Virus record (IMG/VR): IMGVR_UViG_3300023293_000013
Coordinates: 1 to 60,145 of that record
From: a virus
Lineage: Duplodnaviria > Caudoviricetes
DNA length: 60,145 bases
Direction: 5' to 3' (one strand)
Shown here: in pieces, positions 4,139 through 60,145 of the stretch
How the letters are laid out: every line of letters begins with the position of its first letter
How positions within the stretch are numbered: the first letter of the stretch is position 1
The notes under the pieces: generated by a model
What the model saw: only the letters and a program-made list of their open reading frames with translations
Databases searched by the model: none
Told to the model about the DNA's origin: nothing
Made by a program: the position numbers and the translations under genes

Positions 4139-6075
4139 TGATTATACCAACTACAGAATGGTTAACACCAACAGAATTTCCTGACCTAAGAAAATACGAT
4201 GAGATTGCGATTGACTTAGAAACAAGAGATCCAGATTTAAAGAGTAAGGGTTCAGGGGCCATTATAGGTAATGGTGAAGTTGTAGGTATAGCTGTCGCTG
4301 TAGAAGGTTGGAAAGGTTATTATCCAATTGCTCATGAAGCAGGTCCAAACATGGATCGTAAAAAAGTATTAGAATGGTTTAAAGATATCTGTGAATGTCC
4401 TGCTACAAAAATATTTCATAATGCAATGTATGATGTATCTTGGATTCGTAATTTAGGTATAAAAATCAATGGTTTAATCATAGATACTATGATTGCTGCA
4501 TCTATTATTGATGAGAATAGATTTCAATATTCATTGAATTCTTTATCTTGGGTTTATTTAAATCAAGGTAAGAATGAAGCTCTATTAACTAAAGCTGCTA
4601 AAGAAAGAGGATTAGATCCTAAAGCAGATATGTGGAGATTACCTTCAACAGAAGTTGGTGGTTATGCAGAAAAAGATGCTGAACTAACTTTAATGTTGTG
4701 GCAAAAATTTAAGAAAATAATTATAGAAGATGATCTTCAAAATATATTTAATTTAGAAACTGATCTTTTCCCTTGCCTAGTCGACATGCGTTTTTTAGGA
4801 GTAAGAGTAGACGTTCAAAAAGCTCATACACTGAAGACAGCATTAAGAATAAAAGAAGAAAACTTAATCCAACAGATAAAAATAGAAACTGGAATAGAAG
4901 TTCAGCTAATGGCTGCACGAAGTATTGCACCACTTTTTGATAAATTGAATTTACCTTATGAGCGAACTGAGAAAACAGGTGAACCTTCATTTACTAAAAA
5001 CTTTCTTGTGAATCATAATCATCCAGTAGTTAACATGATAGCAGAAGCAAGAAAAATAAACAAGGTTAGAACTACATTTATAGATTCAATTATTAAACAT
5101 GAACATAAGGGTAGAATTCATGCTGACATAAATCAAATTAGATCTGATGATGGAGGAACGGTTACGGGAAGATTCTCATATTCTAATCCAAACTTACAAC
5201 AAATTCCAGCCAGGGATCCGGAAACAGGTCCATTAATTAGATCTTTATTTATTCCAGATGAAGGTTGTAAGTGGGGAACATTTGATTACTCACAACAGGA
5301 ACCAAGATTGGTTACTCATTACGCATCAAGATTTGGTTTATCATCTGTAGAACCAGTTGCTAATGCTTATGACCAGGATCCAACTACGGACTTTCATAAA
5401 ACCGTAGCACAATTAGCTAACATAGATCGTAAAGAAGCTAAAACAATTAACTTAGGTTTATTCTACGGTATGGGTAAAGCAAAACTAATGAATGAGTTGA
5501 GTGTAACTAAAGAAAAAGCTGATGAATTATTTGCTAACTATCACAACATGGTTCCATTCGTTAAACAATTGATGAATAAGTTAATGAATGCTTCTCAAAC
5601 TAAAGGTCAAATAAAAACATTACTTGGAAGACGTTGTAGGTTTCCTAAATATGAACCAATTCTTAGAGGAAGTGATTGGGGAACTTTTGTTCATGCCGAA
5701 GATCATGAGAGAATGGAAGAATTAAAAGATATGGGTCCTTATTTAAAAGATCATGAAGATAATTTTATTACTGATGAAGATGGTAATAAAAGAAAAAATT
5801 ATTGGCATGGTAATCCTACAAGAAGAGCCTTTACTTATAAAGCATTAAATAAATTAATTCAAGGTAGTGCTGCGGATATGACTAAAAAAGCAATGGTTGA
5901 CCTATATAAAGAGGGTCATTTAGCTCATATACAAATCCACGATGAACTTGATTTTTCTATTGAATCAGATTCACAAGCTGATAAAATAAAAGACATAATG
6001 GAAAAAGCTGTAGAGCTTAAAGTTCCAAACAAAGTTGATTATGAGTCTGGACCTAACTGGGGAGAGATTAAATAA
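4138..6075 (+). CDS. polA: Family A DNA polymerase with 3'-5' exonuclease (Leu762 type)
   Basis: DLET/HNAMYD exonuclease motifs; DYSQQEPR motif A; KTINLGLFYGMG motif B; QIHDEL motif C. Confidence 0.96.
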   Translation: MIIPTTEWLTPTEFPDLRKYDEIAIDLETRDPDLKSKGSGAIIGNGEVVGIAVAVEGWKGYYPIAHEAGPNMDRKKVLEWFKDICECPATKIFHNAMYDVSWIRNLGIKINGLIIDTMIAASIIDENRFQYSLNSLSWVYLNQGKNEALLTKAAKERGLDPKADMWRLPSTEVGGYAEKDAELTLMLWQKFKKIIIEDDLQNIFNLETDLFPCLVDMRFLGVRVDVQKAHTLKTALRIKEENLIQQIKIETGIEVQLMAARSIAPLFDKLNLPYERTEKTGEPSFTKNFLVNHNHPVVNMIAEARKINKVRTTFIDSIIKHEHKGRIHADINQIRSDDGGTVTGRFSYSNPNLQQIPARDPETGPLIRSLFIPDEGCKWGTFDYSQQEPRLVTHYASRFGLSSVEPVANAYDQDPTTDFHKTVAQLANIDRKEAKTINLGLFYGMGKAKLMNELSVTKEKADELFANYHNMVPFVKQLMNKLMNASQTKGQIKTLLGRRCRFPKYEPILRGSDWGTFVHAEDHERMEELKDMGPYLKDHEDNFITDEDGNKRKNYWHGNPTRRAFTYKALNKLIQGSAADMTKKAMVDLYKEGHLAHIQIHDELDFSIESDSQADKIKDIMEKAVELKVPNKVDYESGPNWGEIK

Positions 6076-6510: not shown

Positions 6511-6719
6511 AATTTATTTTAGTAATATTTTTATGTTCTTTTGTTGATAATCAATGTTTACCTCCAGTGGAAATTAAACCACCCTATAATTCATGGAAAG
6601 AATGTACTATTGCTGCATACGAATTATCTAGAGAACTAATACTTGCACAAGAAGAAAAGTTTGTTAATAAAAATAAATTATCCACTAAATTTACATGCAC
6701 AGAAGTAGGTATAATTTAA
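6507..6719 (+). CDS. Small secreted/membrane protein
   Basis: Start corrected to MKFILVIFLC; hydrophobic N-terminus, paired Cys. Confidence 0.6.
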   Translation: MKFILVIFLCSFVDNQCLPPVEIKPPYNSWKECTIAAYELSRELILAQEEKFVNKNKLSTKFTCTEVGII

Positions 6720-9633: not shown

Positions 9634-10169
9634 TGGCATATACAAAAGAATACTATTTAAAAAATAAAGAAGAAATTATAAGAAAGAAAAAAATATATGA
9701 GTTAAAAAATAAAAAACAAATACTCGAAAGACAAAGAAATTATCAAAGTAAATACAGGAAAAATAATCCCCTCCAATTAAAAAAATCTATTTTAAAATAT
9801 AGTAATTCGGAAAAAGGTTATTTTGTTAATTTATGGCAGGTAATTAAAAGAAGAGATAAATTAAATTTGTTTAAAAATTTTGATGAATTTTATAATCACT
9901 GGTTAAAACAAAAAGTTAAATATGGGATGAAGTGTCCTGCGACAAAAGAAAAAATGACTACTAAAAGAGGTTTTACTAAACCAGGAGAAAAACAAAAAAG
10001 ATGTTTAACTAATATATCCACGGATAGAATAATATGTACAAAAAAATATACACCTAAAAATTTAATTTTTACAACTTGGAGATATAATAATGCTAAACAT
10101 AGTATAACACCTGAAATGGCAAAAGCTTTTTTAAGAATAGTTAAAGAAAGATATGGAGATAAAATATAA
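9633..10169 (+). CDS. HNH-like endonuclease paralog with a basic N-terminus
   Basis: KYSNSEKGY and NISTDRI...YTPKNLIF...NNAK align with 8742-9212; most Zn-binding Cys lost. Confidence 0.65.
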   Translation: MAYTKEYYLKNKEEIIRKKKIYELKNKKQILERQRNYQSKYRKNNPLQLKKSILKYSNSEKGYFVNLWQVIKRRDKLNLFKNFDEFYNHWLKQKVKYGMKCPATKEKMTTKRGFTKPGEKQKRCLTNISTDRIICTKKYTPKNLIFTTWRYNNAKHSITPEMAKAFLRIVKERYGDKI

Positions 10170-11110: not shown

Positions 11111-11220
11111 GTTATTCCCTATTCTTCCCTCTACGTCCCTCTACGTCCCTATATGTCCCTATATGTCCCTATATGTCCCGTTGCGTCCCGTTGCGTCCCG
11201 TTGCGTCCCGTTGCGTCCAA
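11111..11220. repeat. Eleven 10-bp tandem repeats (iteron-like)
   Basis: NNNNNTCCC(T/G) units that drift CTACGTCCCT -> ATATGTCCCT -> TTGCGTCCCG. Confidence 0.92.
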
Positions 11221-12171: not shown

Positions 12172-12603
12172 ATGAAAATTATGCGAAAGAAAACTAAAAC
12201 AAAACATTTTAAAAAAACACCTAGACCACTTCCAGTTGAGACTCATGGATTACCCAACAATGTTAGGATTGGTTACAAAGATGTTAAGATTAGATATGTT
12301 AGACCTGATTATAAAAAATGGGAATTGACTGATTGTTTTGGTGAATATGATTACAGACAAAATGTTATACAAGTTCAACATGATTTGTGTGGTCAAGAAA
12401 TGGCTAACACAATATTCCATGAGATTATGCACGCAGCTGTTCAGGTAGCAGGTTTAAATCAAGAAAAGCAAGCGTTAGAAAAACCAGAACATGAAGAGGC
12501 TGTAGTTAATCAATTAACAAATGTTATGATGGGTGTATTTAGAGATAACGATTGGATGATAGATATGCTTAGAACTCAATTAGAAGATACGGACCATGAT
12601 TAA
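12172..12603 (+). CDS. HExxH metallopeptidase (ImmA/IrrE/SprT-like)
   Basis: CFG.Y...I.V...NTIFHEIMHA...HEE.VV. Confidence 0.75.
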   Translation: MKIMRKKTKTKHFKKTPRPLPVETHGLPNNVRIGYKDVKIRYVRPDYKKWELTDCFGEYDYRQNVIQVQHDLCGQEMANTIFHEIMHAAVQVAGLNQEKQALEKPEHEEAVVNQLTNVMMGVFRDNDWMIDMLRTQLEDTDHD

Positions 12604-13115
12604 TCCGACGTTTCTAGGTTCTCTTTTGGCTCTTGCCTTACTTTGTCTATTAATTCTTCATACTCAACACCTTCTAGGATGGGTGAGTAATCATCTATTA
12701 TTTGTTTCATTCTCGATTCTAATTCTTCTGTTGATAAATCTTCAAGTTTCCCAGTCCTAATAATTTTTTGCTCTATATATAAACCTGCTGCTTTACCTCT
12801 AGCTACCTCTGCATTAACTGCAGCTGACCAGGCTTTCTTATCTCTAGCTTCATCTCTAAGTTTACCTAACTCTGATATATGATTACCAAATGTAACTTCA
12901 TATTGTTTTTGCCATTCTTCTCTAAGCTCACCTATGTATTGAACTACTAATGGAAATAATTTTGGATTCTGTAATTTACTAGCTGCTTGTCTTGCTGAGT
13001 CTTCTGCATAACCTGCTTCAATAGCACAAGCTGTAGCAGTTTTTCTACCTTGATCTGATATTAATAAATTAGCAAATCTTATTTGCTGTTCAGTTAATCT
13101 TTTAGGAATTCCCAT
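12600..13115 (-). CDS. terS: Terminase small subunit
   Basis: LTEQQIRFA...TATACAIEAGY...A...ASKL..P...YI.EL HTH pattern of Terminase_2-type proteins. Confidence 0.8.
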   Translation of the reverse strand: MGIPKRLTEQQIRFANLLISDQGRKTATACAIEAGYAEDSARQAASKLQNPKLFPLVVQYIGELREEWQKQYEVTFGNHISELGKLRDEARDKKAWSAAVNAEVARGKAAGLYIEQKIIRTGKLEDLSTEELESRMKQIIDDYSPILEGVEYEELIDKVRQEPKENLETSD

Positions 13116-13291
13116 TATAATTTTTCCTTAATTGAATCTAAATAATCCTGGTTGTCTTCATTCTCATTTTCTCTTTTAATGTCATTAAAACCAGTTTTCT
13201 TTTTACCAAAAATCTCATTCCAACGTTGTGAATAAACGTTATTACTTGGCCTTGATTTACCGTCCCACTGTCTAGCTTTATCTTTAGTCAT
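13115..13291 (-). CDS. Small hypothetical protein (58 aa)
   Basis: Manual translation MTKDKARQWDGKSRPSNNVYSQRWNEIFGKK...; TAATG-coupled to terS. Confidence 0.6.
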   Translation of the reverse strand: MTKDKARQWDGKSRPSNNVYSQRWNEIFGKKKTGFNDIKRENENEDNQDYLDSIKEKL

Positions 13292-13327
13292 TATGTCGCA
13301 TTTGTAAGTATTGATTATTTAACACAA

Positions 13328-13341
13328 CAATGTATACATTG
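13328..13341. promoter_or_regulatory. Perfect 14-bp palindrome between divergent transcription units (operator candidate)
   Basis: CAATGTATACATTG. Confidence 0.45.
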
Positions 13342-13420
13342 CAACAGTAGTTAGGTTAAAAAACATTAACAAATGTATTCTGGTTTACCTAATTATCTTT
13401 GTTTGTTTGTGGTTAAACAT

Positions 13421-13482
13421 ATCTGGCGTCGGCTTACGAAACTCCTGAGTACACTCATTGGGGTAGATACTGGGCGCCGGAT
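13421..13482 (+). ncRNA. Candidate structured 5' leader (extended hairpin with internal loop)
   Basis: ATCTGGCGTC/GGCGCCGGAT, ACTCC/GGGGT, TGAG/CTCA; wobble pairs are G-U on the + strand. Confidence 0.5.
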
Positions 13483-13496
13483 TTAAAATAAAAGTT

Positions 13497-13724
13497 ATGA
13501 ATGGAAGATTATTAAGACAAGTTTTAGACAAGATGATGAAAGGCAATTTGAACACCGGTAATGCTAGAGTTCAAGTTTGTTTGCCTGATGGACAATATTA
13601 TGATATTACATCTTTACAACTCATGGAAAATAAACTATTGGGTGTTAGAGAGTCACACCGACTAGTATTTACAGTTAAAGCTGAGACATGGAATATGGGT
13701 AAAGTTTTAAAGAAAATAGGCTAG
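13497..13724 (+). CDS. Hypothetical protein
   Basis: ORF track. Confidence 0.65.
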   Translation: MNGRLLRQVLDKMMKGNLNTGNARVQVCLPDGQYYDITSLQLMENKLLGVRESHRLVFTVKAETWNMGKVLKKIG

Positions 13725-13744
13725 CCTGTTAACTTAAAAATAAC

Positions 13745-14107
13745 GTGAAACCCGAGACTAAATTCTATGCAAAAGTTAAAAAAAATATTACATCTATATC
13801 CTGGATTAGGATTGAAAACCTTAGCGTTCCTGGTACTCCCGATCTATTGGGTTATAATAATTCTGGCGTCTTTTTCACTGTTGAACTGAAATATACAAAA
13901 ACAAACAAGGTTACCTTTTCCCCACACCAAATAGCGTTCCATGTGAAACATCCTGAGAACACTTTTATCCTAGTAGAGGATGCCTTAAGCCGGACTCCAA
14001 AACTTTATGGGGGCAAAGAGATCCGGAACCTGGTAGCCGGAGGCCTGAAGCTTGCACCAATGCTTCAGGGGTTTCCTCAAATAAAAATTTTTTTAGATAA
14101 TCTTTAG
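13745..14107 (+). CDS. VRR-NUC / Holliday-junction resolvase-like nuclease
   Basis: E...RIEN...PGTPD...VELK...SPHQIAF. Confidence 0.8.
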   Translation: MKPETKFYAKVKKNITSISWIRIENLSVPGTPDLLGYNNSGVFFTVELKYTKTNKVTFSPHQIAFHVKHPENTFILVEDALSRTPKLYGGKEIRNLVAGGLKLAPMLQGFPQIKIFLDNL

Positions 14108-14240
14108 AGCTTGTTGCTTGAAGCTTGAATCCGGAATCCGGGGGCTTCATGTCAATGTGACATATCATCCTGCGTCATTTTGTCGCAGCTTGAGGCTGCT
14201 TGTGGCTTGCAGCTTGAGGCTCCCCAGCTTGTGGCTTTTT
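14108..14240. repeat. GCTTG-core heptamer cluster with a TGCGTC-N5-GTCGCA box (module 1)
   Basis: gcttgtt gcttgaa gcttgaa tccggaatccgg ... ctgcgtcattttgtcgcag cttgagg ... Confidence 0.8.
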
Positions 14241-14273
14241 GTCCCTGCGACAATTTGTAGCACCAGCTGAATC

Positions 14274-14303
14274 AAAAAAAATCCGGGGCCAATGGCCCCG
14301 GAT
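14274..14303 (-). terminator. Intrinsic terminator of the leftward cassette
   Basis: ATCCGGGGCC-AAT-GGCCCCGGAT stem preceded by an A run (U tract on the minus strand). Confidence 0.8.
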
Positions 14304-14314
14304 CCAGGATAAAC

Positions 14315-14524
14315 TTATTTTGATAAACTTGATTTTTTCCAAGCCTCGAATGCTTTTTTCTCCAGCTCTTCTAATTTGTTTTCCCGGTCCAAAGCTTCGA
14401 ACACCGCTGATTGGATGCCTTTTATTTCGCTCCACGTGTCCACCATCATAAGCCTTCGCATAATGTGCAGCTTCAGGTGGTCGTTGTAATATTTGTCTAA
14501 ATCTTTTTTTCTGTCTGTTCGCAT
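14315..14524 (-). CDS. Early small hypothetical protein
   Basis: Has its own box promoter, AAAGGA RBS and terminator. Confidence 0.75.
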   Translation of the reverse strand: MRTDRKKDLDKYYNDHLKLHIMRRLMMVDTWSEIKGIQSAVFEALDRENKLEELEKKAFEAWKKSSLSK

Positions 14525-14562
14525 TTTTTATATCCTTTTTGTTTGTTTGTTTAACTGTATGC

Positions 14563-14607
14563 ATTATAGCAGAACCAGCAGGGATAAAAATATGACAGAT
14601 CGCCGCA
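14563..14607 (-). promoter_or_regulatory. Box-dependent promoter (RegA-like box plus TATAAT)
   Basis: Minus strand TGCGGCGATCTGTCAT-23 nt-TATAAT with extended TG. Confidence 0.75.
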
Positions 14608-14825
14608 GCTTGTCGCTTGAGGCTTGAACCCGGATTCCGGGCTCCTGCGTCAATGTGTCCGTCAACATGACAAATTGCCCTGCGACAATTTGCCGCAGCT
14701 TGCTGCTTCATTTTGACGCAGCCCTGCGGGCTGCGTAATCGGAACCTTTGTATCTTGGAGCTTGAGGCTTTTTGTTAAAGCTGGCTTGTGGCTTTTTTTT
14801 AAAGTTAGCTTGTGGCTTGTAGCCA
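14608..14825. repeat. GCTTG heptamers with three boxes (module 2)
   Basis: gcttgtc gcttgag gcttgaa cccggattccggg; boxes at 14645, 14680-14698 and 14703-14721. Confidence 0.75.
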
Positions 14826-14896
14826 TTGTCCCGGCACCAGGCTTCATGTATCTTTAGAGCCGCTGGGCTCAGTCTTATATCTTGATTATCTATCAT
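14708..14896 (-). CDS. Small hypothetical protein whose C-terminus runs into the repeats (KPQA)
   Basis: TAATG-coupled to 14896-15132. Confidence 0.5.
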   Translation of the reverse strand: MIDNQDIRLSPAALKIHEAWCRDNGYKPQANFKKKPQASFNKKPQAPRYKGSDYAARRAASK

Positions 14897-15132
14897 TATT
14901 TTACTTTCTTTTCTTTTACTTTAACAAATGCCATATATTTTAAATATCCATTTTGTTTATTTTTTTCTTCTTTATAGTTTTTAAATATATCCGTAATTAG
15001 ATCTAGTTTATTAGAAATATTACTTATTTCTTCAAATGTAATTGTTTGATTGTGAATTGATTTAATTTTTAACTTATGTACTAACTCATTAATTTTATAC
15101 AATTTGCTTTTTGTTTTTAAATCTAATTTCAT
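14896..15132 (-). CDS. Hypothetical protein
   Basis: ORF track; coupled. Confidence 0.6.
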   Translation of the reverse strand: MKLDLKTKSKLYKINELVHKLKIKSIHNQTITFEEISNISNKLDLITDIFKNYKEEKNKQNGYLKYMAFVKVKEKKVK

Positions 15133-15278
15133 TAGTTTAGTTTCTTTCTTTCTTTATTATCTTTTTTTAACCATTCAAAAAATTCCAAGCAATCTTTAAG
15201 ATACCAGGCCGGCAGGCTGCTGTGATCTTCTAAAAACCACGGCAGCAAATTACCTCTTTTTATTTTTCTTTTTTTCAT
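15132..15278 (-). CDS. Small hypothetical protein (48 aa)
   Basis: Manual translation MKKRKIKRGNLLPWFLEDHSSLPAWYLKDCLEFFEW... Confidence 0.6.
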   Translation of the reverse strand: MKKRKIKRGNLLPWFLEDHSSLPAWYLKDCLEFFEWLKKDNKERKKLN

Positions 15279-15279
15279 A

Positions 15280-15885
15280 TTAGTGCTTTCCATAACTTAC
15301 GTTTTTAATATCCTTGTTCCAACAGGCCCTGCAATCTAAGCATTGATTGCCCTGAGTCCCTGACGGACAAGTTGGTTTTCCATCTGTAACTACTGTTGAA
15401 GTATGCGGCCAGGCCTTAGGCGCAGCGCCGTCTACTTTAGCCCCGGACAATCTAATAATTAAATTGTCCGGGATCTCTTCAGGGTTAACAGCTAGGATAT
15501 ACTGACGCTCTTGCGTCGGTAACCAGTGTTTTGTGTTTGGTGTACGTTTACAAACATCAAAAATTTTTCTTAAATGATCCACGCTTTGAAGGTCCCCGGC
15601 ATCGTGCCACCTGAACCATTCTTGTTTTTGGATCTGTAGAGCCATAGCCTCGACCCATAAAGGGTGTTCAATTGCATCTAGTCTACGATACTGAGCTGCT
15701 TTAATAGCAGGGTATCTAATGTAATTATTTTTGAATGCATAGCATCCAAAGCATGGGGAGGTTGGTATCTTTCTAAGCTTTGCCCCCGTTTGACAAGCCC
15801 ATGCGGGCAAGCTGTAACTTTTACCAGGCATTTTTGAGGTCCTAGTTAATGAGTCTGTAATCTTTGCTGCTTCTTTTATTAACAT
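15280..15885 (-). CDS. Gp88-family (radical-SAM-like) protein
   Basis: SKMPG.S.SLPA..C..G...C..CYA, FRWHDAGD, HWLPT, CP...C..CRACW. Confidence 0.75.
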   Translation of the reverse strand: MLIKEAAKITDSLTRTSKMPGKSYSLPAWACQTGAKLRKIPTSPCFGCYAFKNNYIRYPAIKAAQYRRLDAIEHPLWVEAMALQIQKQEWFRWHDAGDLQSVDHLRKIFDVCKRTPNTKHWLPTQERQYILAVNPEEIPDNLIIRLSGAKVDGAAPKAWPHTSTVVTDGKPTCPSGTQGNQCLDCRACWNKDIKNVSYGKH

Positions 15886-15910
15886 AATTATATCCCTTTC
15901 TGTTTCCTAT

Positions 15911-15955
15911 ATAATACAGATCTTAAAATAAATTAAAACTGTACATATTGCCGCA
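15911..15955 (-). promoter_or_regulatory. Box-dependent promoter of the Gp88 operon
   Basis: Minus strand TGCGGCAATATGTACA-23 nt-TATTAT; AACAGAAAGGGA RBS downstream. Confidence 0.75.
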
Positions 15956-16066
15956 GGCGCCAAGCTTGCGGCTTGGCGCTTGAAGCTTGAGGCTAGCCTC
16001 AATAATGATTTAACGAATGTCCATTGCATTCAACCGCCTATTTTAACTGTCGCAGTTAACAGTTGA

Positions 16067-16340
16067 TCAGCCTCAACGCTCATGTCATGCCCTGGATTTA
16101 CAGCTTAGGTTTACAACTCCTTAACAGCATGACCATAGTAAACTACCGATCCCAAGCCACTTGCCGAAGACCCTTTCGGGGGTTAACCATAACAAGGTCA
16201 AGTGGCCAGGGATCAGCCCCGTAATTAAAGTCAGCTTCTCACTGACCATTGAACGGGGATCTCCGTACTTGCTTTTTCCGGTGCAAGTCCCGTTAAGATT
16301 TATAGTTTTATTCAGCGATAAATCTTCAAATGAGGCTGAA
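16067..16340 (-). ncRNA. Candidate ~275-nt multi-helix non-coding RNA
   Basis: Closing stem TCAGCCTCA/TGAGGCTGA enclosing several perfect stems; GAAA tetraloop on the minus strand; own promoter. Confidence 0.75.
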
Positions 16341-16345
16341 ATTAA

Positions 16346-16389
16346 ATATTAACATAATTGATTTTTAATTCCACGTGCAAACTGTCGCA
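16346..16389 (-). promoter_or_regulatory. Box-dependent promoter of the ncRNA
   Basis: Minus strand TGCGACAGTTTGCACG-22 nt-TAATAT with extended TG. Confidence 0.7.
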
Positions 16390-16391
16390 CC

Positions 16392-16460
16392 CTGAGGCTT
16401 GAAGCTTGAATCTCAAAATCATGTCAACATGACAAATTGTCCTGCGTCAATTTGTCGCAC
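16392..16460. repeat. GCTTG heptamers plus box (module 3) at the divergence point of early transcription
   Basis: gcttgaa gcttgaa tc...gtcaacatgacaaattgtc ctgcgtcaatttgtcgcac; near-copy of 14661-14698. Confidence 0.75.
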
Positions 16461-16475
16461 CCTGGAAAAATTCCA

Positions 16476-16520
16476 TGCGTCAATTTGGACAATGGTTTTT
16501 TTTTACAGATAAAATAAAAT
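16476..16520 (+). promoter_or_regulatory. Box-dependent promoter, cassette 1
   Basis: TGCGTCAATTTGGACA-23 nt-TAAAAT. Confidence 0.75.
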
Positions 16521-16556
16521 GCAAACTGTTTAACAATTAACAAAAAGGATAATACA

Positions 16557-17147
16557 ATGAAACCAATACGAAGCAATGAGTTAGAGTTTTTCAAAGAAAT
16601 GATTAGAGAAAAATTCTATGATAAAAAAGAAACGTTAAGAACTTATATAACAAGTGAAGCCCAAAAACTAAGCGATAAGAAACAACCTTTTATGGCTAAG
16701 CAATGTGGCGTTGAAACTGAACTCAAGAAACTAAAAGTAGTTGATGAGAAATATAGAGAGTTCAAACAAACAAAGCAACTTCAAGAACAAAAATTACTTG
16801 AAGCAGTTGAGGAAGTGGGTAGAACTTTAAGTGCCAAACTTCAACGAATGGCTAAAGCTAGAGATTGGGATAAAGATTTTTCCAACTTTAGTCCAAGAAT
16901 GGAAGGCGACAGCGTTGATTATTTTGTCAATAAATTAAATGATTGCTGTTATGATGAGGCCTACAAACAGGTCAAATCAAATCATACAGTATATAATCAA
17001 TTAAATAATATGAAGTCCGAATGTGAAATTATTTTGCATACAGGAAGCGACATCAATTCAGTTGTGACCACTTTAAAAGGTGCCATGAAAAAAGCTGATA
17101 TTGAATTACCTGTACCAAGTAATTTATTGCAGTTAGCTATAAAATAG
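16557..17147 (+). CDS. Early hypothetical protein (helical)
   Basis: AAAGGA RBS, own promoter. Confidence 0.8.
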   Translation: MKPIRSNELEFFKEMIREKFYDKKETLRTYITSEAQKLSDKKQPFMAKQCGVETELKKLKVVDEKYREFKQTKQLQEQKLLEAVEEVGRTLSAKLQRMAKARDWDKDFSNFSPRMEGDSVDYFVNKLNDCCYDEAYKQVKSNHTVYNQLNNMKSECEIILHTGSDINSVVTTLKGAMKKADIELPVPSNLLQLAIK

Positions 17148-17149
17148 AC

Positions 17150-17194
17150 TGCGTCAATTTGTGCAGTGGCTTTAATTAGCCACTGTGCTAATAT
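17150..17194 (+). promoter_or_regulatory. Box-dependent promoter with internal inverted repeat, cassette 2
   Basis: TGCGTCAATTTGTGCA GTGGCT...AGCCACTG TGC TAATAT. Confidence 0.8.
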
Positions 17195-17219
17195 AGATTT
17201 ATTAACAGAAAGAGGAAAA

Positions 17220-17399
17220 ATGGCACAACAAAACGAAGAGCACTTTGAAACAATAGACAGCAATAAAGCTAAAGCATACGAGGAACAGAAAGCAATGCGC
17301 CAGGAATTAATGGAATGGGTTAAAACTTGTGACAAATGGCATATGGGTGAATTATTTTCTGAAATGCGTAGAATGAAACGTAGTTGGGAAGTAGAGTAG
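17220..17399 (+). CDS. Early small protein (59 aa)
   Basis: Start corrected to the ATG after AGAAAGAGGA (MAQQNEEHF...). Confidence 0.75.
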   Translation: MAQQNEEHFETIDSNKAKAYEEQKAMRQELMEWVKTCDKWHMGELFSEMRRMKRSWEVE

Positions 17400-17401
17400 C
17401 C

Positions 17402-17446
17402 TGCGTCAATATTGACAGTGGCTTTAATTAGCCACTGTGCTATTAT
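17402..17446 (+). promoter_or_regulatory. Box-dependent promoter, cassette 3
   Basis: TGCGTCAATATTGACA-23 nt-TATTAT. Confidence 0.8.
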
Positions 17447-17473
17447 TCTTTTATTAACAGAAAGGATAAAACA

Positions 17474-17761
17474 ATGGAAAAAGAAAAAACAAGTGGTCTA
17501 CATAAAGACATTAAATATACAACTAGAGAAAATGGTGAGGTGTCTGGTTTTAGATTTACATCAGATGAGGGACGTGAAAAATTTAGACAAATGCAAATTT
17601 TAAATGTTCTTAAAATGGAAGTGATGAGCACAATGGGAATTAGATTTTACAGAGGATCTATTGTTAATGTTCTTAAATCATATTTTCCAGATATACCAAG
17701 AACTAAAAAAGGCGCATATAAATATTTAAAAGCGAGAGGTTATTATCCAGAAGATAAATAA
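17474..17761 (+). CDS. Early hypothetical protein
   Basis: AACAGAAAGGA RBS. Confidence 0.8.
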   Translation: MEKEKTSGLHKDIKYTTRENGEVSGFRFTSDEGREKFRQMQILNVLKMEVMSTMGIRFYRGSIVNVLKSYFPDIPRTKKGAYKYLKARGYYPEDK

Positions 17762-17763
17762 CC

Positions 17764-17808
17764 TGCGTCAAAGTGTGCAATGGCTATTTCTAGCCATTGC
17801 ATTAATAT
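17764..17808 (+). promoter_or_regulatory. Box-dependent promoter, cassette 4
   Basis: TGCGTCAAAGTGTGCA-23 nt-TAATAT. Confidence 0.8.
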
Positions 17809-17842
17809 GTTTGAATATTAATAATTAACAGAAAGATACAAA

Positions 17843-18082
17843 ATGAAAAAACAAACTGATCAAAAATGGATAAGCTACCATGCGACAAGATTAAATTTAA
17901 TTGATTCTTTAAATTCTCATATTAAATCTATGGAAGCAGTAAATGTTTATCATAATGAAACTAACCAATGCGATAGCCATAGTATGAGAAATGAGGACAT
18001 GGGTTTAGATATCATACAGAAATTAATTAAAAAAATAACTAAAGATGGAGATCAAGAACGAGAATACAAAGACGCAGTTTAA
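17843..18082 (+). CDS. Early hypothetical protein
   Basis: AACAGAAAGA RBS. Confidence 0.75.
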   Translation: MKKQTDQKWISYHATRLNLIDSLNSHIKSMEAVNVYHNETNQCDSHSMRNEDMGLDIIQKLIKKITKDGDQEREYKDAV

Positions 18083-18083
18083 C

Positions 18084-18128
18084 TGCGACAATATTGACAA
18101 TGGCGCTAATGCGCCATTGTGCTAATAT
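18084..18128 (+). promoter_or_regulatory. Box-dependent promoter, cassette 5
   Basis: TGCGACAATATTGACA-23 nt-TAATAT. Confidence 0.8.
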
Positions 18129-18152
18129 AAGATATTAACAGAAAGGAATACA

Positions 18153-18332
18153 ATGGGACAATTAACAGAACAATTAAAAAAAGACTTTATTAAAAATGGC
18201 TTTGAAAAAAAAGAAGCTACAAAAAAAGCGCATGAATATATGAGTAAATATAATTTATGTCGTTCATGTGGAGAATCTATACGAATAGATTTCCACAGTT
18301 GGAAACCAGGTTATTGTCAAGGTTGCTGTTAG
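18153..18332 (+). CDS. Early small zinc-finger protein (59 aa)
   Basis: Manual translation MGQLTEQ...CRSCG...YCQGCC; AACAGAAAGGA RBS. Confidence 0.75.
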   Translation: MGQLTEQLKKDFIKNGFEKKEATKKAHEYMSKYNLCRSCGESIRIDFHSWKPGYCQGCC

Positions 18333-18334
18333 CC

Positions 18335-18380
18335 TGCGACAATTATGACAATGGCGCCTAACGGCGCCATGTGTTATTAT
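18335..18380 (+). promoter_or_regulatory. Box-dependent promoter, cassette 6
   Basis: TGCGACAATTATGACA-24 nt-TATTAT. Confidence 0.8.
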
Positions 18381-18405
18381 ACATTCATTAACAGAAAGGA
18401 TATAT

Positions 18406-18699
18406 ATGATTGAATATAACGGAAAAAAAATAGAACTACCATTTGTGGTAAAATCACATTCAACATCAATGGTGACAAGATCTAATAGATTCAATGGTGA
18501 ATCAATTAAGTTGCCTAGCTTTGCAGCATGTGTTTATGATTATACAATGTATATGACTGAACTTACAGAAGCTAAGGATTTAGCAACTAACCAAGAGCCC
18601 GGCTTCAGTGACAATCAAGATGATTGGCAAATAGTACGGAATGGATTGGATTGGTTTCGTCAATACTTTGCAAAAGAATATATGGTGTTGCTAGATTAA
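18406..18699 (+). CDS. Early hypothetical protein
   Basis: AACAGAAAGGA RBS; C-terminal GLDWF...F..EYMVLLD. Confidence 0.8.
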   Translation: MIEYNGKKIELPFVVKSHSTSMVTRSNRFNGESIKLPSFAACVYDYTMYMTELTEAKDLATNQEPGFSDNQDDWQIVRNGLDWFRQYFAKEYMVLLD

Positions 18700-18716
18700 C
18701 ACAGTGACAATATATC

Positions 18717-18777
18717 CTGCGACAATATGTCGCAGGCGCTGTAACAATATACCACAGGGGTGTGACAAGATGTCGCA
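18717..18777. promoter_or_regulatory. Three tandem palindromic boxes closing the early region
   Basis: CTGCGACAATATGTCGCAG, CTGTAACAATATACCACAG, TGTGACAAGATGTCGCA. Confidence 0.7.
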
Positions 18778-19010
18778 GCCTGAGGCTCCGAGCTATACTC
18801 GCTCGCTTCGCTCGCTCGCACATTCAATAGAGGTACCAGACCCATACCGACATTTGAATTTTTGTATATATTAATGTATACCTACGTATATAAAAAGATA
18901 CTTATATGTAGTATATATAGTAACTCATGGATACTTAATGACATAAAATAGTTATTCTTTTTAAAAACACATATGAAAAAATATTATAAAATTTTTTTTC
19001 GAATGCACTT

Positions 19011-20486
19011 ATGGATATAGACAAGTTAAAAAAGTTTGAGAAATTACCACCTGATGTCAAAAGACAATTAGCTTTGTATATGTCTAAGTGGAATGACAAG
19101 AAAAAACAAGCTACTATTAAACAGGACTTCATGGCTTTTGTTAAACATGTATGGCCAGATTTTATTGAAGGATCACATCACAAACAAGTAGCTAAAAAAT
19201 TTAATGACATAGCTAATGGTAAAACAAAACGTGTTATTATCAATATGGCACCTAGACATACTAAGTCTGAATTTGCGTCTTACTTATTACCTGCCTGGAT
19301 GGTAGGTAGAAATCCTAAATTAAAAATTATTCAATCAACTAACACAACTGAATTATCTGTAAGGTTTGGACGTAAAGCAAAAGCTTTAATGGATACTCCA
19401 GAATATAAAGAAGTTTTTGAAACAAGATTAAAAGAAGATTCTCAAGCTGCTGGTAAATGGGAAACTCAACAAGGTGGAGAATATTATGCTGCCGGTGTTG
19501 GATCTGCAATTACTGGAAGGGGTGCTGATTTATTAATTATTGATGATCCCCATACTGAGCAAGATGCAATGAATGCACAAGCCTTGGATAGAACTTATGA
19601 ATGGTATACCTCTGGTCCACGTCAACGTCTTCAACCTGGCGGAACCATTATTATTGTAATGACTAGATGGAATGAAAAAGATTTAGCCGGACGCCTGATT
19701 AAAGCACAAAAGGAACCTAAAGCAGATCAATGGGAACTAATTGAATTTCCTGCAATCCTTCCTAACGATGAACCCTTGTGGCCGGAATATTGGAACATAA
19801 AAGATCTAGAAGCAGTTAAAGCATCTATTCCATTATCAAAGTGGAATGCACAATATATGCAGAATCCTACTGGAGATGAAGGAGCTTTAATTAAAAGAGA
19901 ATGGTGGCAGAAATGGGAAGATGATGAATTACCTAAAGTAGAACATATTATACAATCTTATGACACAGCGTTTATGAAAAAAGAAACAGCCGATTATTCT
20001 GCAATCACCACTTGGGGAGTTTTTCACCCCGATGAAGATAGTGGTCCCTGTTTAATATTATTGGATTCATTAAAAGGAAGATACGAGTTTCCAGAATTAA
20101 GAAGAGTTGCAATGGAGCAGTACGGCTACTGGCAACCCGAAACAGTGATTATAGAGGGCAAGGCATCCGGGCTTCCTCTCACTTATGAATTAAGAAAAAT
20201 GGGAATCCCAGTTATAAATTTCACACCCTCAAAAGGTAATGATAAACACACTAGAGTAAATAGTGTCTCTCCATTATTTGAATCAGGTAAGATATGGGCG
20301 CCTACTGAGATGGAGTTTGCACAAGAAGTTATTGAAGAATGCGCTGCTTTTCCTTATGGAGACCATGATGACTTAGTTGATTCTATGACCCAAGCAGTAA
20401 TGAGATTTAGACAAGGAGGTCTAATTCATCACCCAGATGATTATAAAGATGAGCCTTTACAGCACAAAGAAAAAGTGTATTATTAG
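19011..20486 (+). CDS. terL: Terminase large subunit
   Basis: NMAPRHTKSE Walker A, LLIIDDP Walker B, VMTRW, nuclease motifs SYDTA and HDDLVDSMTQ. Confidence 0.95.
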   Translation: MDIDKLKKFEKLPPDVKRQLALYMSKWNDKKKQATIKQDFMAFVKHVWPDFIEGSHHKQVAKKFNDIANGKTKRVIINMAPRHTKSEFASYLLPAWMVGRNPKLKIIQSTNTTELSVRFGRKAKALMDTPEYKEVFETRLKEDSQAAGKWETQQGGEYYAAGVGSAITGRGADLLIIDDPHTEQDAMNAQALDRTYEWYTSGPRQRLQPGGTIIIVMTRWNEKDLAGRLIKAQKEPKADQWELIEFPAILPNDEPLWPEYWNIKDLEAVKASIPLSKWNAQYMQNPTGDEGALIKREWWQKWEDDELPKVEHIIQSYDTAFMKKETADYSAITTWGVFHPDEDSGPCLILLDSLKGRYEFPELRRVAMEQYGYWQPETVIIEGKASGLPLTYELRKMGIPVINFTPSKGNDKHTRVNSVSPLFESGKIWAPTEMEFAQEVIEECAAFPYGDHDDLVDSMTQAVMRFRQGGLIHHPDDYKDEPLQHKEKVYY

Positions 20487-20489
20487 CAC

Positions 20490-21200
20490 ATGGCAAAATA
20501 TGATGACATGTCTGAGACAGAAGAAATTCCTATGGATTTAGGTCCAATGGAGGAAGACTCAGAAGATATTAGAGATTTTATGAGAGACCAAGGTATTCCG
20601 GGTCCCGGCTCCAAGAATCAAGGAGTTATGGGTGCTGCAGAAAATACTGAGATGGCTGGTATGGGTAAAGTTATGAAAATGTTTGAAACTCCATATGGTT
20701 TTGATAGAGATGGTTTTGAAGAAAATTATATCCAGTTTATGGATTACAAAGATGGTGGTGGAGACATGGGCATTGTAGAATTTACATTAAATGCTTTTGA
20801 CATGGTTAAAGGAAAAGAAAAAGAATCAAGTATTAAAATGGCATCAGAGACTCCTGAAGAAGAATTTGACTTAATGCAAATGCAAGAAGAGATGCAACAA
20901 CAAGAAGAATTAAAAAAACAATTAGAAAAAGATAGAGAACAAGCAATGATGGGTGGTTCTATGAGAGCAAAGTATAATGATGGTACACCTCTTCCAATGA
21001 AAAAGAAATACAACTTTATGGAATTAGTTGATTCATCTAATGATGCTTTAGATGAAGAACGATTAGATAGAAAATATAATGCAAAAAATTATCCACCATC
21101 TCAAAGAAATATGAGTATGGAAGAATTAAAAAAAATGTTTAAAAAAGCAAAAGAAGATAAATTAAAAAGAGCTAAAGGCGGTATTGCAGGAGTTCTGTAA
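20490..21200 (+). CDS. Acidic Met-rich putative virion protein
   Basis: ORF track; carries AxGG motifs. Confidence 0.7.
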   Translation: MAKYDDMSETEEIPMDLGPMEEDSEDIRDFMRDQGIPGPGSKNQGVMGAAENTEMAGMGKVMKMFETPYGFDRDGFEENYIQFMDYKDGGGDMGIVEFTLNAFDMVKGKEKESSIKMASETPEEEFDLMQMQEEMQQQEELKKQLEKDREQAMMGGSMRAKYNDGTPLPMKKKYNFMELVDSSNDALDEERLDRKYNAKNYPPSQRNMSMEELKKMFKKAKEDKLKRAKGGIAGVL

Positions 21201-24205: not shown

Positions 24206-24268
24206 TTATTAAAAATAAAATGACAAAAACAAAAAAACAAGTTAAAATAAATTAATTAAGGAGATAAT

Positions 24269-24463
24269 ATGAAAAAATATAATGATATTTGCGGAAAAAT
24301 TGTTGAGATTCCATCTGAAAACGATATGAATCTTGAAATTGACCCTAGATCTAAAACAACAGCTGATGGTGCTTACAACTACATTGCTAAAGGTGAAGAA
24401 GTTAAAGTAAGAGGAACTAAAAGAATGTTGAAAGAGAAGTCTAAAAAAGCTAAGTGGATCTAA
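24269..24463 (+). CDS. Small hypothetical protein
   Basis: AAGGAG RBS. Confidence 0.7.
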   Translation: MKKYNDICGKIVEIPSENDMNLEIDPRSKTTADGAYNYIAKGEEVKVRGTKRMLKEKSKKAKWI

Positions 24464-24464
24464 C

Positions 24465-24851
24465 ATGTGGATTTCGGCACTAAAATTAGCCGTTTCTGCT
24501 GGAAGTAAAATTTATGCTAACAAGCAGAAGACGAAGATAGCTATGTCTGATGCACAGCTTATGCATGCATCTAGAATGGCTGAAGGCAAGGAAGCTTACC
24601 AAGGAAAACTGTTAGAAGCCCGTCAATCAGATTGGAAGGACGAGGCAGTTTTAATAATTTTAAGTTTGCCTATAGCAATTTTGGCCTGGGCAGTCGTAAG
24701 TGATGATCCAACTGCTATGGACAAGGTAAAACTGTTCTTTGAGATGTTTTCAGAACTTCCTAAATGGTTCACTAATTTATGGATACTTGTTGTGGCGAGC
24801 ATTTATGGTATAAAGGGAACACAGATATTTAAAAACGGAGCAAAAAAATAA
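24465..24851 (+). CDS. Putative holin (3TM/GTA-like)
   Basis: Two TM helices, SDWKDE motif, LPKWF...ASIYG. Confidence 0.6.
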   Translation: MWISALKLAVSAGSKIYANKQKTKIAMSDAQLMHASRMAEGKEAYQGKLLEARQSDWKDEAVLIILSLPIAILAWAVVSDDPTAMDKVKLFFEMFSELPKWFTNLWILVVASIYGIKGTQIFKNGAKK

Positions 24852-24997
24852 TGAGAAATTTTTATAATAAAGGTGGTCCAACTTTAACTAAAGGACAAAA
24901 GACTTTACCAAAAGAATTACAGAAAAAAATTTTAATGTCTAAAGGTAAAAAGAAAAAAACTAAATCACCAAGAGAAAAATCAATGGGGATAGCATAA
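24851..24997 (+). CDS. Small basic protein (48 aa)
   Basis: Manual translation MRNFYNKGGPTLTKGQKTLP...; coupled. Confidence 0.55.
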   Translation: MRNFYNKGGPTLTKGQKTLPKELQKKILMSKGKKKKTKSPREKSMGIA

Positions 24998-25152
24998 TGT
25001 CTAATAATTATCATACTACTAAAGATGGTAAAAAAGCTAAAAAAGGTCTTTGGTATAATATTGCTATGAAGAAAAAACGTGGTGAGAAGATGAGAAAAAA
25101 AGGTGCCAAAGGTGCACCAACAGCAGCAGCCATTAAAAAATCACAGGCGTAA
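24997..25152 (+). CDS. Small basic protein (51 aa)
   Basis: ...KKGLWYNIAMKKKRGEKMRKKGAKGAPT...; coupled. Confidence 0.6.
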   Translation: MSNNYHTTKDGKKAKKGLWYNIAMKKKRGEKMRKKGAKGAPTAAAIKKSQA

Positions 25153-56238: not shown

Positions 56239-56577
56239 ATGAGCAAAGTATATTTAACACAAGAGATACCTGTCGATAGAGACACAGGACAGCCTAAATA
56301 CAACGTATTAGGTGCGCAAAAGTATGGCGACATAATGACGCTGCTACCTATGTATTCTCAAATTATATTATCACCAGGACCATTAATAATGAAACTTAGA
56401 ACTCTTCTAAAAGACTTCACTACTGATGATTATTTACTACTTTCAGGCGATCCAGCAATTATTGGCGTTGTATGTTCAGTTTGTTCAGATATTACAAATG
56501 GCAAGTACAAGTTGTTAAAATGGGACCGTCAAGAAAAAACTTATTATCCAATAGAAATAAATATTTTTCAAAATTAG
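56239..56577 (+). CDS. Conserved replication-module hypothetical protein
   Basis: DDYLLLSGDPAII; divergent from the SNF2 gene. Confidence 0.75.
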   Translation: MSKVYLTQEIPVDRDTGQPKYNVLGAQKYGDIMTLLPMYSQIILSPGPLIMKLRTLLKDFTTDDYLLLSGDPAIIGVVCSVCSDITNGKYKLLKWDRQEKTYYPIEINIFQN

Positions 56578-57225: not shown

Positions 57226-58005
57226 ATGGCTAATACAAATGCTATGACGAAGAAAGATGATGCAGGTGCATTATCTACAATCAATCTCAGAAGCGATTCT
57301 GGGAGAGGTTCTGAAGAAATAAAATCGGATGATATGTCAACACCGATTTTAAAAATCCTACACCAACTATCACCAGAGTGTAATGCGACTAATGCAAAAT
57401 ATGTTGAAGGTTCAAAACCTGGAATGATATTTGCTAAAGGTCTCGGTACACTAGTTGATGGTACTAAAGGAGTGGATGTTTTAATTTGCCACGTGCAAAC
57501 AAGATATCCAGAATGGCAAGAAATGGGAGACACAGCTTCTCCGCCTGTAACAACACACTTATCTATTCCAAGTGATGCACAGGAAGAAAGAAATGGTAAG
57601 TGGAGATTATCAAATGGTAACTACATAGAAAAGACCGCATATTTTTATGTGATTGTTTTAGGTGATGAGCCTAGACCTGCAGTTATTACTATGAGATCTT
57701 CTAACTTAACAGCTGCCAGAGAATTAAATCAGTTGATTAAAAATCTTAGATTTAAGGATGACAAAGGCATTTATAATCCAGCAGCATATGCAGCAGTTTA
57801 TAATTTAAAAACTGTTGGTAAAGTTGCAGGAAGTAAAAGCTGGCATGTTTACAAACCCTCTATGAATAGAGCGTTAGATATATCTAAGAAAGATGACGCT
57901 GACTTATACGTAATGGCACAGGAACTACAAAAAACTGTGTCTAAGGGTTCTGCTAAACCCGAGTATGAGAAGAAGGTGGAATTTAAAACTGAGGACATTG
58001 TATAA
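57226..58005 (+). CDS. Putative ssDNA-binding protein
   Basis: PILKILHQLSPE...KPG; acidic C-terminus; position before the primase. Confidence 0.55.
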   Translation: MANTNAMTKKDDAGALSTINLRSDSGRGSEEIKSDDMSTPILKILHQLSPECNATNAKYVEGSKPGMIFAKGLGTLVDGTKGVDVLICHVQTRYPEWQEMGDTASPPVTTHLSIPSDAQEERNGKWRLSNGNYIEKTAYFYVIVLGDEPRPAVITMRSSNLTAARELNQLIKNLRFKDDKGIYNPAAYAAVYNLKTVGKVAGSKSWHVYKPSMNRALDISKKDDADLYVMAQELQKTVSKGSAKPEYEKKVEFKTEDIV

Positions 58006-58085
58006 TTCACTAAGTGAATACTTCGAAGGTTGGGCGGCTACGGGAGACTGTAGCTGCCCATATAATAAAAGAATAAGGAATAGAT

Positions 58086-59735: not shown

Positions 59736-60145
59736 TGATATATAAATTTTTTGGACCACCAGGTACAGGTAAAACCCATAGACTAATATCTAGAGCTAAA
59801 GCTTATGCTAGAATGGGTACTCCTCTACATAAGATTGGTTACTTTGCATTTACTAAAAAAGCTGCATTGGAAGCTAAAAAAAGAATGCCTGCAGAAGATA
59901 AAAAACTTCCATACTTTCAAACTCTTCATTCATTTGCTTATCATCAATTAACATTAAATGAAGAAGATGTTATGCAACCTTTTCATTATGAAGAACTTGG
60001 AAAATTATTAAATGTTAAAGTTAAATACTATGACAAATATAATAAAGATGAAGTTAGTTTTTTAAATTGTGATAGTCCCTATTTTCAAATGATAGGTAAA
60101 GCTATGAATAGAGATGTAGGTATTAGAGAAGAATTTGATAGGAAA
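59735..60145 (+). CDS. UvrD-like helicase, 3'-truncated second copy
   Basis: MIYKFFGPPGTGKT; runs off the window end. Confidence 0.85.
   Translation, partial: MIYKFFGPPGTGKTHRLISRAKAYARMGTPLHKIGYFAFTKKAALEAKKRMPAEDKKLPYFQTLHSFAYHQLTLNEEDVMQPFHYEELGKLLNVKVKYYDKYNKDEVSFLNCDSPYFQMIGKAMNRDVGIREEFDRK

Follow-up and report, generated by a model that had tools for sequence, protein, structure and literature searches.

Between its two terminase genes, the window considered here (the whole 60,145-base stretch of viral DNA that was analysed, for which CheckV estimates a completeness of 96%) carries a 4.6-kb stretch in which copies of a 17-bp box are clustered. The box has the form TGCGWC-N5-GWCGCA when it is a full palindrome, and this cluster, with the promoters and small genes around it, is the subject of the present analysis. 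Judged by its sequence, the window is a nearly complete HTVC023P-type pelagiphage genome. Its DNA-level similarity to the Pelagibacter phages HTVC027P and HTVC023P and to 023Pt_psg01 is weak, and its large terminase (TerL) is 78%, 60% and 72% identical to those of HTVC027P, HTVC023P and 023Pt_psg01, respectively. Because the nearest named phages, HTVC027P and HTVC023P, were both isolated on HTCC1062, the host is, on this sequence kinship, SAR11, which agrees with the alphaproteobacterial host supposed in the initial annotation. Nearly all genes lie on the plus strand. The replication module recognized with Pfam consists of an AEP primase, a UvrD-like helicase and a family A DNA polymerase; the small terminase subunit is encoded on the minus strand at 12600-13115, and the TerL gene (19011-20486) is followed by portal and virion genes. 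The phage had been described as having no RNA polymerase of its own, and no such domain was found among the 50 window proteins scanned with Pfam; for HTVC027P as well, the portion of PMC12753301 that was consulted states that the phage has no RNA polymerase and depends on the host enzyme.

Nine of the box copies are of promoter type and are distributed on both sides of a divergent control region around 16389-16480. Six small genes form the rightward units, and a separate box, -10 element and TTAACAGAAAGGA ribosome-binding stretch go with each. On the plus strand, the promoter units at 16476-16520 (-10 TAAAAT), 17150-17194 (extended -10 tgcTAATAT), 17402-17446 (extended -10 tgcTATTAT), 17764-17808 (-10 TAATAT), 18084-18128 (extended -10 tgcTAATAT) and 18335-18380 (extended -10 tgtTATTAT) precede, in this order, the genes at 16557-17147 (196 aa), 17220-17399, 17474-17761, 17843-18082, 18153-18332 and 18406-18699, the distance from box start to -10 being 39 nt in the first five and 40 nt in the last. 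The leftward units, on the minus strand, comprise an ncRNA-like stretch, an operon and a single gene. The first promoter unit (16346-16389; box TGCGACAGTTTGCACGT at 16373-16389, extended -10 tgtTAATAT at 16346-16351, 38 nt) stands before a structured non-coding stretch at 16040-16345, a candidate phage non-coding RNA (ncRNA). The second (15911-15955; box TGCGGCAATATGTACAG at 15939-15955, -10 TATTAT at 15911-15916, 39 nt) stands before an operon (14708-15885) made of a GP88-family gene at 15280-15885 (PF17338, E 8e-28), small open reading frames at 15132-15293 and 14896-15132, and a gene for a 62-aa basic KPQA-repeat protein at 14708-14896. The third (14563-14607; box TGCGGCGATCTGTCATA at 14591-14607, extended -10 tgcTATAAT at 14563-14568, 39 nt) stands before a 69-aa ORFan gene at 14315-14524, and the leftward units end at a strong intrinsic terminator (about 14270-14300), whose GGATCCGGGGCC...GGCCCCGGATTTTTTTT hairpin occupies 14263-14312 on the minus strand at -22.2 kcal/mol. 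The small proteins encoded here are mostly without a family assignment.

In all nine promoter-type copies the box starts 38-40 nt upstream of the -10 hexamer, in seven at exactly 39 nt, and recomputation gave the same figures as the initial annotation. The spacing is constant though the intervening sequence varies between copies, and places the centre of the box some 43 nt before the expected start. The sequence at the expected -35 position is poor, as had been claimed, and six of the nine copies have an extended -10, with TGn directly 5' of the hexamer.

Other copies of the box stand apart from these nine promoter units. A free-standing full palindrome, TGCGTCATTTTGTCGCA (14171-14187), forms the left boundary of the cluster, with a near-full one carrying one mismatch, TGCGACAATTTGTAGCA, at 14246-14262, and two more free-standing palindromes, TGCGACAATATGTCGCA (18718-18734) and TGTGACAAGATGTCGCA (18761-18777), form the right boundary directly upstream of the TerL gene. 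Between the divergent promoters there is a central composite (16419-16464) of TGTCAACATGACA, AATTGTCC and the full palindrome TGCGTCAATTTGTCGCA (16443-16459), and further sites are found at 14646-14662 (degenerate), 14681-14697 (TGCGACAATTTGCCGCA) and 14704-14720 (within one mismatch of the palindrome). Sites fitting TGCGWC-N5-GWCGCA with at most one mismatch thus number seven, at 14171, 14246, 14681, 14704, 16443, 18718 and 18761. GCTTGWGGCTTG also forms arrays in the window, with a period of 7 or 14 nt, at 14106-14250, 14605-14631, 14743-14831, 15968-15994 and 16387-16413, and in HTVC027P, at 5756-5892 and 6646-6703; some of them encode the KPQA repeats of the protein at 14708-14896, and others are non-coding and adjoin palindromes.

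The five plus-strand promoters that lie 3' of another gene contain a hairpin between box and -10 (17158-17191, 17410-17443, 17772-17805, 18092-18125 and 18343-18376), with stems of 9-13 bp and energies of -16 to -19 kcal/mol. Three different stem sequences are used, GTGGCT, ATGGCTA and ATGGCGC(C), all of which pair, and the 3' arm shares bases with the TGn of the extended -10. Since the 16476 promoter, which comes first on the plus strand, and all three promoters of the minus strand are free of hairpins and yet keep the same spacing, the hairpins are more likely part of the preceding gene's 3' end than of the promoter, and they may serve that gene as 3'-end or processing signals. The non-coding stretch at 16040-16345 is GC-rich and free of open reading frames, with a minimum free energy of -142.9 kcal/mol (z -4.9 compared with shuffles), and segments of about 80 nt are conserved at 80-95% in relatives, the segment differing from one relative to the next, with HTVC023P among these relatives. 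These features make it a candidate modular phage ncRNA; no Rfam family was found in the window at the gathering score, nor in 15900-16420 at E values up to 1. In metatranscriptomes, four marine runs hold contigs 90-99% like parts of the region, with DNA carry-over possible, and as such contigs give no transcript starts they have no bearing either way on the promoters. As for the rest of the window, no tRNAs were found, and its first and last 2642 bases (1-2642 and 57503-60144) are 94% identical, a terminal redundancy which, diverging by 6%, suggests that the genome is circularly permuted and that two strain variants went into its assembly.

The clustering of the box can be expressed in numbers. 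The 17-mer TGCGWCAANNTGTCGCA, with up to three mismatches, gives 18 strand-matches, or 11 distinct places, in the window, whereas 100 shuffles gave 0.97 on average and never more than 4, and nine of the 11 places fall within 14171-18777, the other two being 13284 and 56326. The half-site CTGCGWCAA matches 13 times, 0.23 being expected, and 12 of these matches lie within 14180-18725, while the strict core GCGNC-N5-GNCGC is found five times in the 60-kb window and once for the control. The shuffles and half-site counts bear out the concentration of palindromes at about 14.1-18.8 kb that had been claimed. Less exact was the claim that the box occurs elsewhere only as an isolated half-site: the copies are mostly clustered, but related sequences are also present at 9937 (CTGCGACAA), 11182-11217 and 56327-56341. 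The one at 11182-11217 is a decamer tandem array with four copies of TGCGTC, and it belongs to an intergenic segment (11150-11220) in which adjoining decamer arrays, three copies of ATATGTCCCT and four of GTTGCGTCCC, look like iterons by their sequence. At 56327-56341 the match is a strict GCGWC-N5-GWCGC core (GCGACATAATGACGC); it is far from the cluster, within the reading frame of a Pam3 gp32-like gene, and may be due to chance. A palindrome had moreover been ascribed to all copies, and it is indeed full or nearly so at the free-standing sites, but the promoter copies keep only its distal half. The promoter copies resemble the direct repeat GWCAAT-N3-GACAAT as much as the palindrome. A Pho box was considered and rejected, the direct repeats here being 9 nt apart and the E. 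coli pho box having a period of 11 nt.

The box is well kept among close relatives of the phage. From 80 IMG/VR contigs with a TerL 89-96% identical to that of the window, the 39 with at least 1.5 kb upstream of TerL could be used, and at least one box was present upstream of TerL in 38 of the 39 and at least two half-sites in 32. Across 210 distinct promoter-type copies in these relatives, the favoured offsets of the -10-like hexamer are 40 (56 copies) and 39 (15 copies), with the consensus TGCGACAATaTggaCAATggc...attgTg.tA..AT. The genes between the boxes largely differ from contig to contig; since the cargo genes vary while the box stays, the box travels with the promoter and not with a particular cargo gene. 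At the equivalent place, three box-less relatives have other repeated elements: HTVC027P has canonical TTGACA-N17-TAGGAT promoters and GCTTGWGGCTTG arrays, 023Pt_psg01 has GGGCCCACCC elements, and HTVC023P has AT-rich repeats of 31 and 58 nt. The elements of 023Pt_psg01, in the form GGGCCCACCCNCCCC, stand at 5731, 6544, 7301, 8084 and 8139, at the places of the window's free-standing palindromes, and include a pair directly upstream of TerL; three contigs (L126, L129 and L132) have both the palindrome and elements of the 023Pt_psg01 type.

The exact 17-mer is also found in many other viral contigs, including members of an unrelated phage lineage. Eleven uncultured contigs carry two to six exact 17-mers each (control pattern 0), and nine of them have one common promoter architecture. 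The complete 172-kb genome G304, which is in this group, is that of a T4-like myovirus by its Pfam Gp23 match and its nearest capsid matches, and the RNase H matches of two other contigs (L099 and L118) agree with this assignment. The T4-like module is about 75 bp long and consists of the palindrome, TTTACA/TTGACA, ACGATTT, a TTGACT -35-like hexamer, a spacer of 16-17 nt and an extended -10; in 17 of 60 oriented rows (30 sites) the -35-like hexamer is at offset 37-38 with TAnnnT 16-17 nt later. G304 has four module copies within 5 kb (112477-117382) around a GP88 homologue, and the module contigs also include L118, L116, L163 and L093. The cultured pelagimyophage HTVC008M has three sites with one mismatch (control 0), one of them upstream of TTGACT-N17-TAGGAT, and the phages Mosig, Melnitz-3, HTVC010P, HTVC011P and HTVC019P have no sites when the 17-mer is searched with at most one mismatch. 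The promoter form TTGAC(A/T)-N17-TAGGAT is common to HTVC027P (at 6633, 6958, 7448, 8481 and 9031) and HTVC008M, often as gtgaTAGGATat, and it may be a preferred sigma-70 promoter variant of SAR11.

On the host side, SAR11 genomes were reached through the SAR11-441R probe from PMC5604061. All five genomes searched have RegA-sized reading frames of about 190 aa with an HTH_8 domain. The SAR11 RegA that was read has 187 aa, it aligns with 1UMQ, the structure of the PrrA effector domain, over the C-terminal 60 residues (E 2e-25), 24 of the 26 final residues are identical by a hand count and the recognition helix is almost identical, which confirms the premise that SAR11 keeps RegA, with a PrrA-like helix-turn-helix. 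A scan of SAR11 genomes for the same box at respiratory genes had also been proposed, and it led to a membrane cytochrome c gene and to hemC. The strict core GCGNC-N5-GNCGC is found 0, 0, 0, 1 and 1 times in the five genomes, and in a set of 301 Pelagibacteraceae genomes, 138 have GCGWC-N5-GWCGC, with very few exceptions in a single copy; the reversed control, as read from the table of counts, is non-zero in 10 of the 301. From 31 host sites that were read, 24 lie between kdsB and the membrane cytochrome c gene, six at hemC/tsaD and one elsewhere; an unpublished genome (G054) supplies one of the 138 genomes and one of the 24 cytochrome c sites. The kdsB/cytochrome c site is kept in a short divergent intergenic region though the flanking proteins are only 42-56% identical. 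These sites have the form TGCGWC(Y)-N3-(R)GWCGCA at kdsB/cytochrome c and GCGACSSSAGGTCGC at hemC/tsaD, their arms are conserved and their inner three bases vary, and the W position often breaks hairpin pairing. Conserved arms with pairing broken at W speak for a protein site and not for a stem. The flanking T and A of the 17-mer are common to host and phage boxes. The single palindrome per genome is, as read from these sequences, a candidate for the minimal RegA regulon of SAR11, in which cytochrome c and hemC would be regulated by RegA.

The arrangement is best explained by a divergent cluster of promoters that would be used by the host RNA polymerase with sigma-70, mostly through an extended -10 and without a usable -35. 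Each would have its 17-bp box, TGCGWC-N5 followed by a degenerate half, as the site of a host protein. The most probable such protein is RegA of SAR11, the response regulator of the RegB/RegA redox system; placed beside RNA polymerase, RegA would replace the missing -35 contact. Its activated targets would then be the GP88 operon, the small RNA and about eight small ORFan genes, which would be expressed early, with starts some 7 nt after the -10, and the protein would bind with high affinity to the perfect palindromes that adjoin and surround the promoters, which would either load it cooperatively or soak it up. Binding by some host factor is the favoured and fairly probable part of this explanation, because the same palindrome is found in the host and in unrelated phages, no regulator shared among these phages was found and the cargo genes are interchangeable. 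That the factor is RegA in particular is an evenly balanced proposition, argued for by published motifs, by the conserved helix-turn-helix and by the cytochrome c and hemC contexts of the host sites, for which RegA is the best candidate on sequence grounds. The published motifs are YSCGGC(5)GWCRMA for PrrA and GNGRCRTTNNGNCGC for RegR, as quoted in the methods of PMC5506826, the portion of that paper used here. The site at 14681-14697 fits the PrrA motif exactly on its minus strand, and other window sites fit GNGRCRTTNNGNCGC with one mismatch, in keeping with the RegA-family consensus that the box had been said to match. In Rhodobacter, direct PrrA targets include hemA, hemC, hemE, cycA and fbcFBC, according to the sections of PMC4263372 consulted. 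It is probable that the phage co-opts a host transcription factor and that this is a new case of such use.

Several observations weigh against this explanation. The assignment to RegA is based on motif resemblance and gene context, and in the same sections of PMC4263372 the Rhodobacter PrrA ChIP-seq gave no strong consensus; published PrrA motifs are loose, so a match to them is weak evidence. When up to two mismatches are allowed, the five SAR11 genomes have 5, 7, 4, 3 and 10 sites, compared with 8, 10, 7, 13 and 14 for the controls, that is, no enrichment. In the SAR11 isolates HIMB4, HTCC8051 and HIMB1412 there is no palindrome upstream of the cytochrome c gene, where GGGGCAAAATTGnnCAG is found instead. 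The bases next to the core differ, being TGCGWC(T/C)...(A/G)GWCGCA in the host and TGCGWCA...TGWCGCA in the phages, and so does the position of the box, which is centred at about -43 in the window, at about -59 to -67 upstream of the start in SAR11 and at about -65 in the T4-like clade, the distances in SAR11 and in the T4-like clade having been counted by hand from predicted -10 elements. In the promoter copies, the distal half CTGCGWCAA is conserved and the proximal half is GACAAT/GTGCAR. On the phage side, HTVC027P, HTVC023P and 023Pt_psg01 have no strict sites at all, five cultured phages of other alphaproteobacteria have none either, and the G304 Gp23 capsid shows the same 64-66% identity whether it is compared with phages of SAR11, OM43, cyanobacteria or Stenotrophomonas, which points to no one host for the T4-like clade. 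Motifs specific to a clade would also be expected from a phage-encoded specificity factor.

This last point leads to the most serious alternative, namely that a sequence-specific DNA-binding protein encoded by the phage, an activator or repressor made early or carried in the virion, binds the boxes, their likeness to the host site being chance or mimicry. The box is specific to its clade, and the relatives that use other motifs at equivalent places include two phages isolated on HTCC1062 (023Pt_psg01 is uncultured, with its host recorded as unknown), a pattern typical of operators and regulators that evolve together; the phage sites also have a common flank, GG-TGCGWCA, that is not in the host site. 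A binder of this kind was looked for in several ways. No helix-turn-helix or other DNA-binding family was recognized in the 50 window proteins scanned with Pfam or the 30 scanned with PHROGs, and none among the proteins of 12172-21200, where the ORFans and unassigned small proteins could still hide a novel one. A BLAST comparison of all window reading frames with G304 and HTVC008M, which also bear the motif, gave no shared candidate regulator, the shared proteins being a nuclease, two paralogous families of about 195 aa and a few others. GP88, the only box-adjacent gene common to the window and G304, was rejected as the binder, as it does not track the box: it is present in the box-less HTVC027P (76% identity) and 023Pt_psg01 and absent from the box-bearing HTVC008M. 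Comparison of gene content between the box-bearing contigs and the three box-less genomes yielded no helix-turn-helix candidate, and only the 62-aa basic KPQA protein emerged, which occurs at 11 loci with boxes and is missing from all three box-less genomes; its repeats, encoded by GCTTGTGGCTT arrays, are of low complexity and by their look would bind DNA non-specifically at most. Two apparent hits of this comparison, at 24242-24466 and 24862-25014 on the minus strand, are antisense artefacts. With the genes between boxes swapped freely among close relatives while the box stays, a phage-encoded binder is unlikely. A related candidate, an N4-like virion RNA polymerase reading the hairpins, was rejected, since the 1421-aa window protein has no match in Pfam, PHROGs or PDB sequences and the 16476 and minus-strand promoters have the same spacing without hairpins.

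A second alternative keeps the binder in the host and replaces RegA by another protein, either NtrX, which is the other SAR11 protein with a Fis-type helix-turn-helix, or an uncharacterised regulator, and this protein would bind both the cytochrome c/hemC sites and the phage boxes. A further HTH_8 match in SAR11 genomes, stronger than that of RegA, belongs to a protein of about 450 aa that was taken as NtrX-like, the factor at the host sites is named from motif and gene context only, and the looseness of the PrrA motifs noted above leaves room for such a protein. On the other hand, an inverted GCG...CGC repeat with a 5-nt spacer is the pattern published for PrrA and RegR (methods of PMC5506826), and genes for cytochrome c and haem synthesis are PrrA targets (PMC4263372, in the sections cited above), so that this alternative appears distinctly improbable. 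A SciP-like host factor was also considered and rejected, as the family (DUF1153) has no match in any of the five SAR11 genomes and was found in the Caulobacter control. The motif of the SciP family is TGTCGCG.

Finally, it is very unlikely that the palindromes are structural DNA or RNA elements, boundaries of cassette recombination, or packaging or replication signals near the terminase genes. In favour of such roles, the free-standing copies flank the cluster and adjoin GCTTGWGGCT arrays, the cargo genes are mosaic between relatives and many related contigs end directly upstream of TerL. Against them, the stem sequence is invariant and does not co-vary across phage lineages and host, the W position unpairs many host sites (for example GCGAC...GACGC), the promoter copies are non-palindromic yet fixed 39-40 nt from the -10, and no T-run follows the palindromes.

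The explanation by host RegA may be extended further, to a phage that both senses and disarms the redox regulator of its host, an idea that is rather doubtful at present. The early promoters would fire only when RegA is available and active, and RegA, of which a tiny SAR11 cell would hold few molecules, would be titrated by the roughly 17 sites per genome copy as replication multiplies them; the genome of the host itself has only one or two such sites (at cytochrome c and hemC). Unrelated marine myoviruses, among them HTVC008M and the uncultured T4-like clade, would each have come to this solution on their own, and RegA would then be a common entry point for viruses of the ocean's most abundant bacteria. 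Even without this extension, use of RegA by the phage would link viral takeover to the respiratory or energy state of the host in a globally important virus-host pair, and the few host regulators that phages exploit would be joined by a redox system. As a by-product, RegA in SAR11, a group that is genetically hard to study, would have its first concrete cis-element together with a candidate regulon, membrane cytochrome c and hemC.

Compared with known RegA, PrrA, RegR and ActR sites, the box has the same inverted GCG...CGC repeat with a 5-nt spacer, and the recognition helix is conserved in the host, whose own sites lie at cytochrome c and hemC; it differs in its location on a phage, where 4.6 kb hold about 17 copies, in the single half-site of the promoter copies and in that the sites are putative. 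A good -10, the lack of a -35 and a fixed distance to a protein site characterise class II activator-dependent promoters and T4 middle promoters with a MotA box. The predicted promoters described here would be similar, with a putative protein site that replaces or overlaps the -35 region. MotA is encoded by the phage, works with AsiA and has its site centred at -30, and the CRP and FNR sites are centred at -41.5, whereas the centre here is at about -43 and no proteins of the MotA/AsiA type were found.

Phage use of a host transcription factor is in itself known, the portions of PMC9437464 consulted already naming LexA, Spo0A (phi29), CtrA and PhoB, and RegA would join them. In the literature listings and abstracts searched, no description of RegA/PrrA-type boxes in phages was found, and the word 'promoter' is absent from PMC9599517 and PMC12753301. 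The closest parallel is given by the CtrA sites of alphaproteobacterial phages ('lytic deferment'; PMC9437464, same portions), where sites of a host response regulator are likewise concentrated in one intergenic or promoter region, arose in unrelated lineages and are proposed to let the phage read the state of its host. There, CtrA binding and regulation were shown experimentally (PMC9437464), whereas the present system, with a redox regulator in place of a cell-cycle one, another motif and other hosts, is predicted from sequence. Use of PhoB by cyanophages is also mentioned in the part of PMC12753301 that was seen. With the cyanophage pho boxes, the present case has in common that a marine phage wires its genes to a two-component response regulator of the host by means of that regulator's site. 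The pho boxes, as Zeng and Chisholm reportedly described in 2012, control a few auxiliary metabolic genes through PhoB, whereas here a whole cluster of ORFan genes at promoters without a -35 would be under such control.

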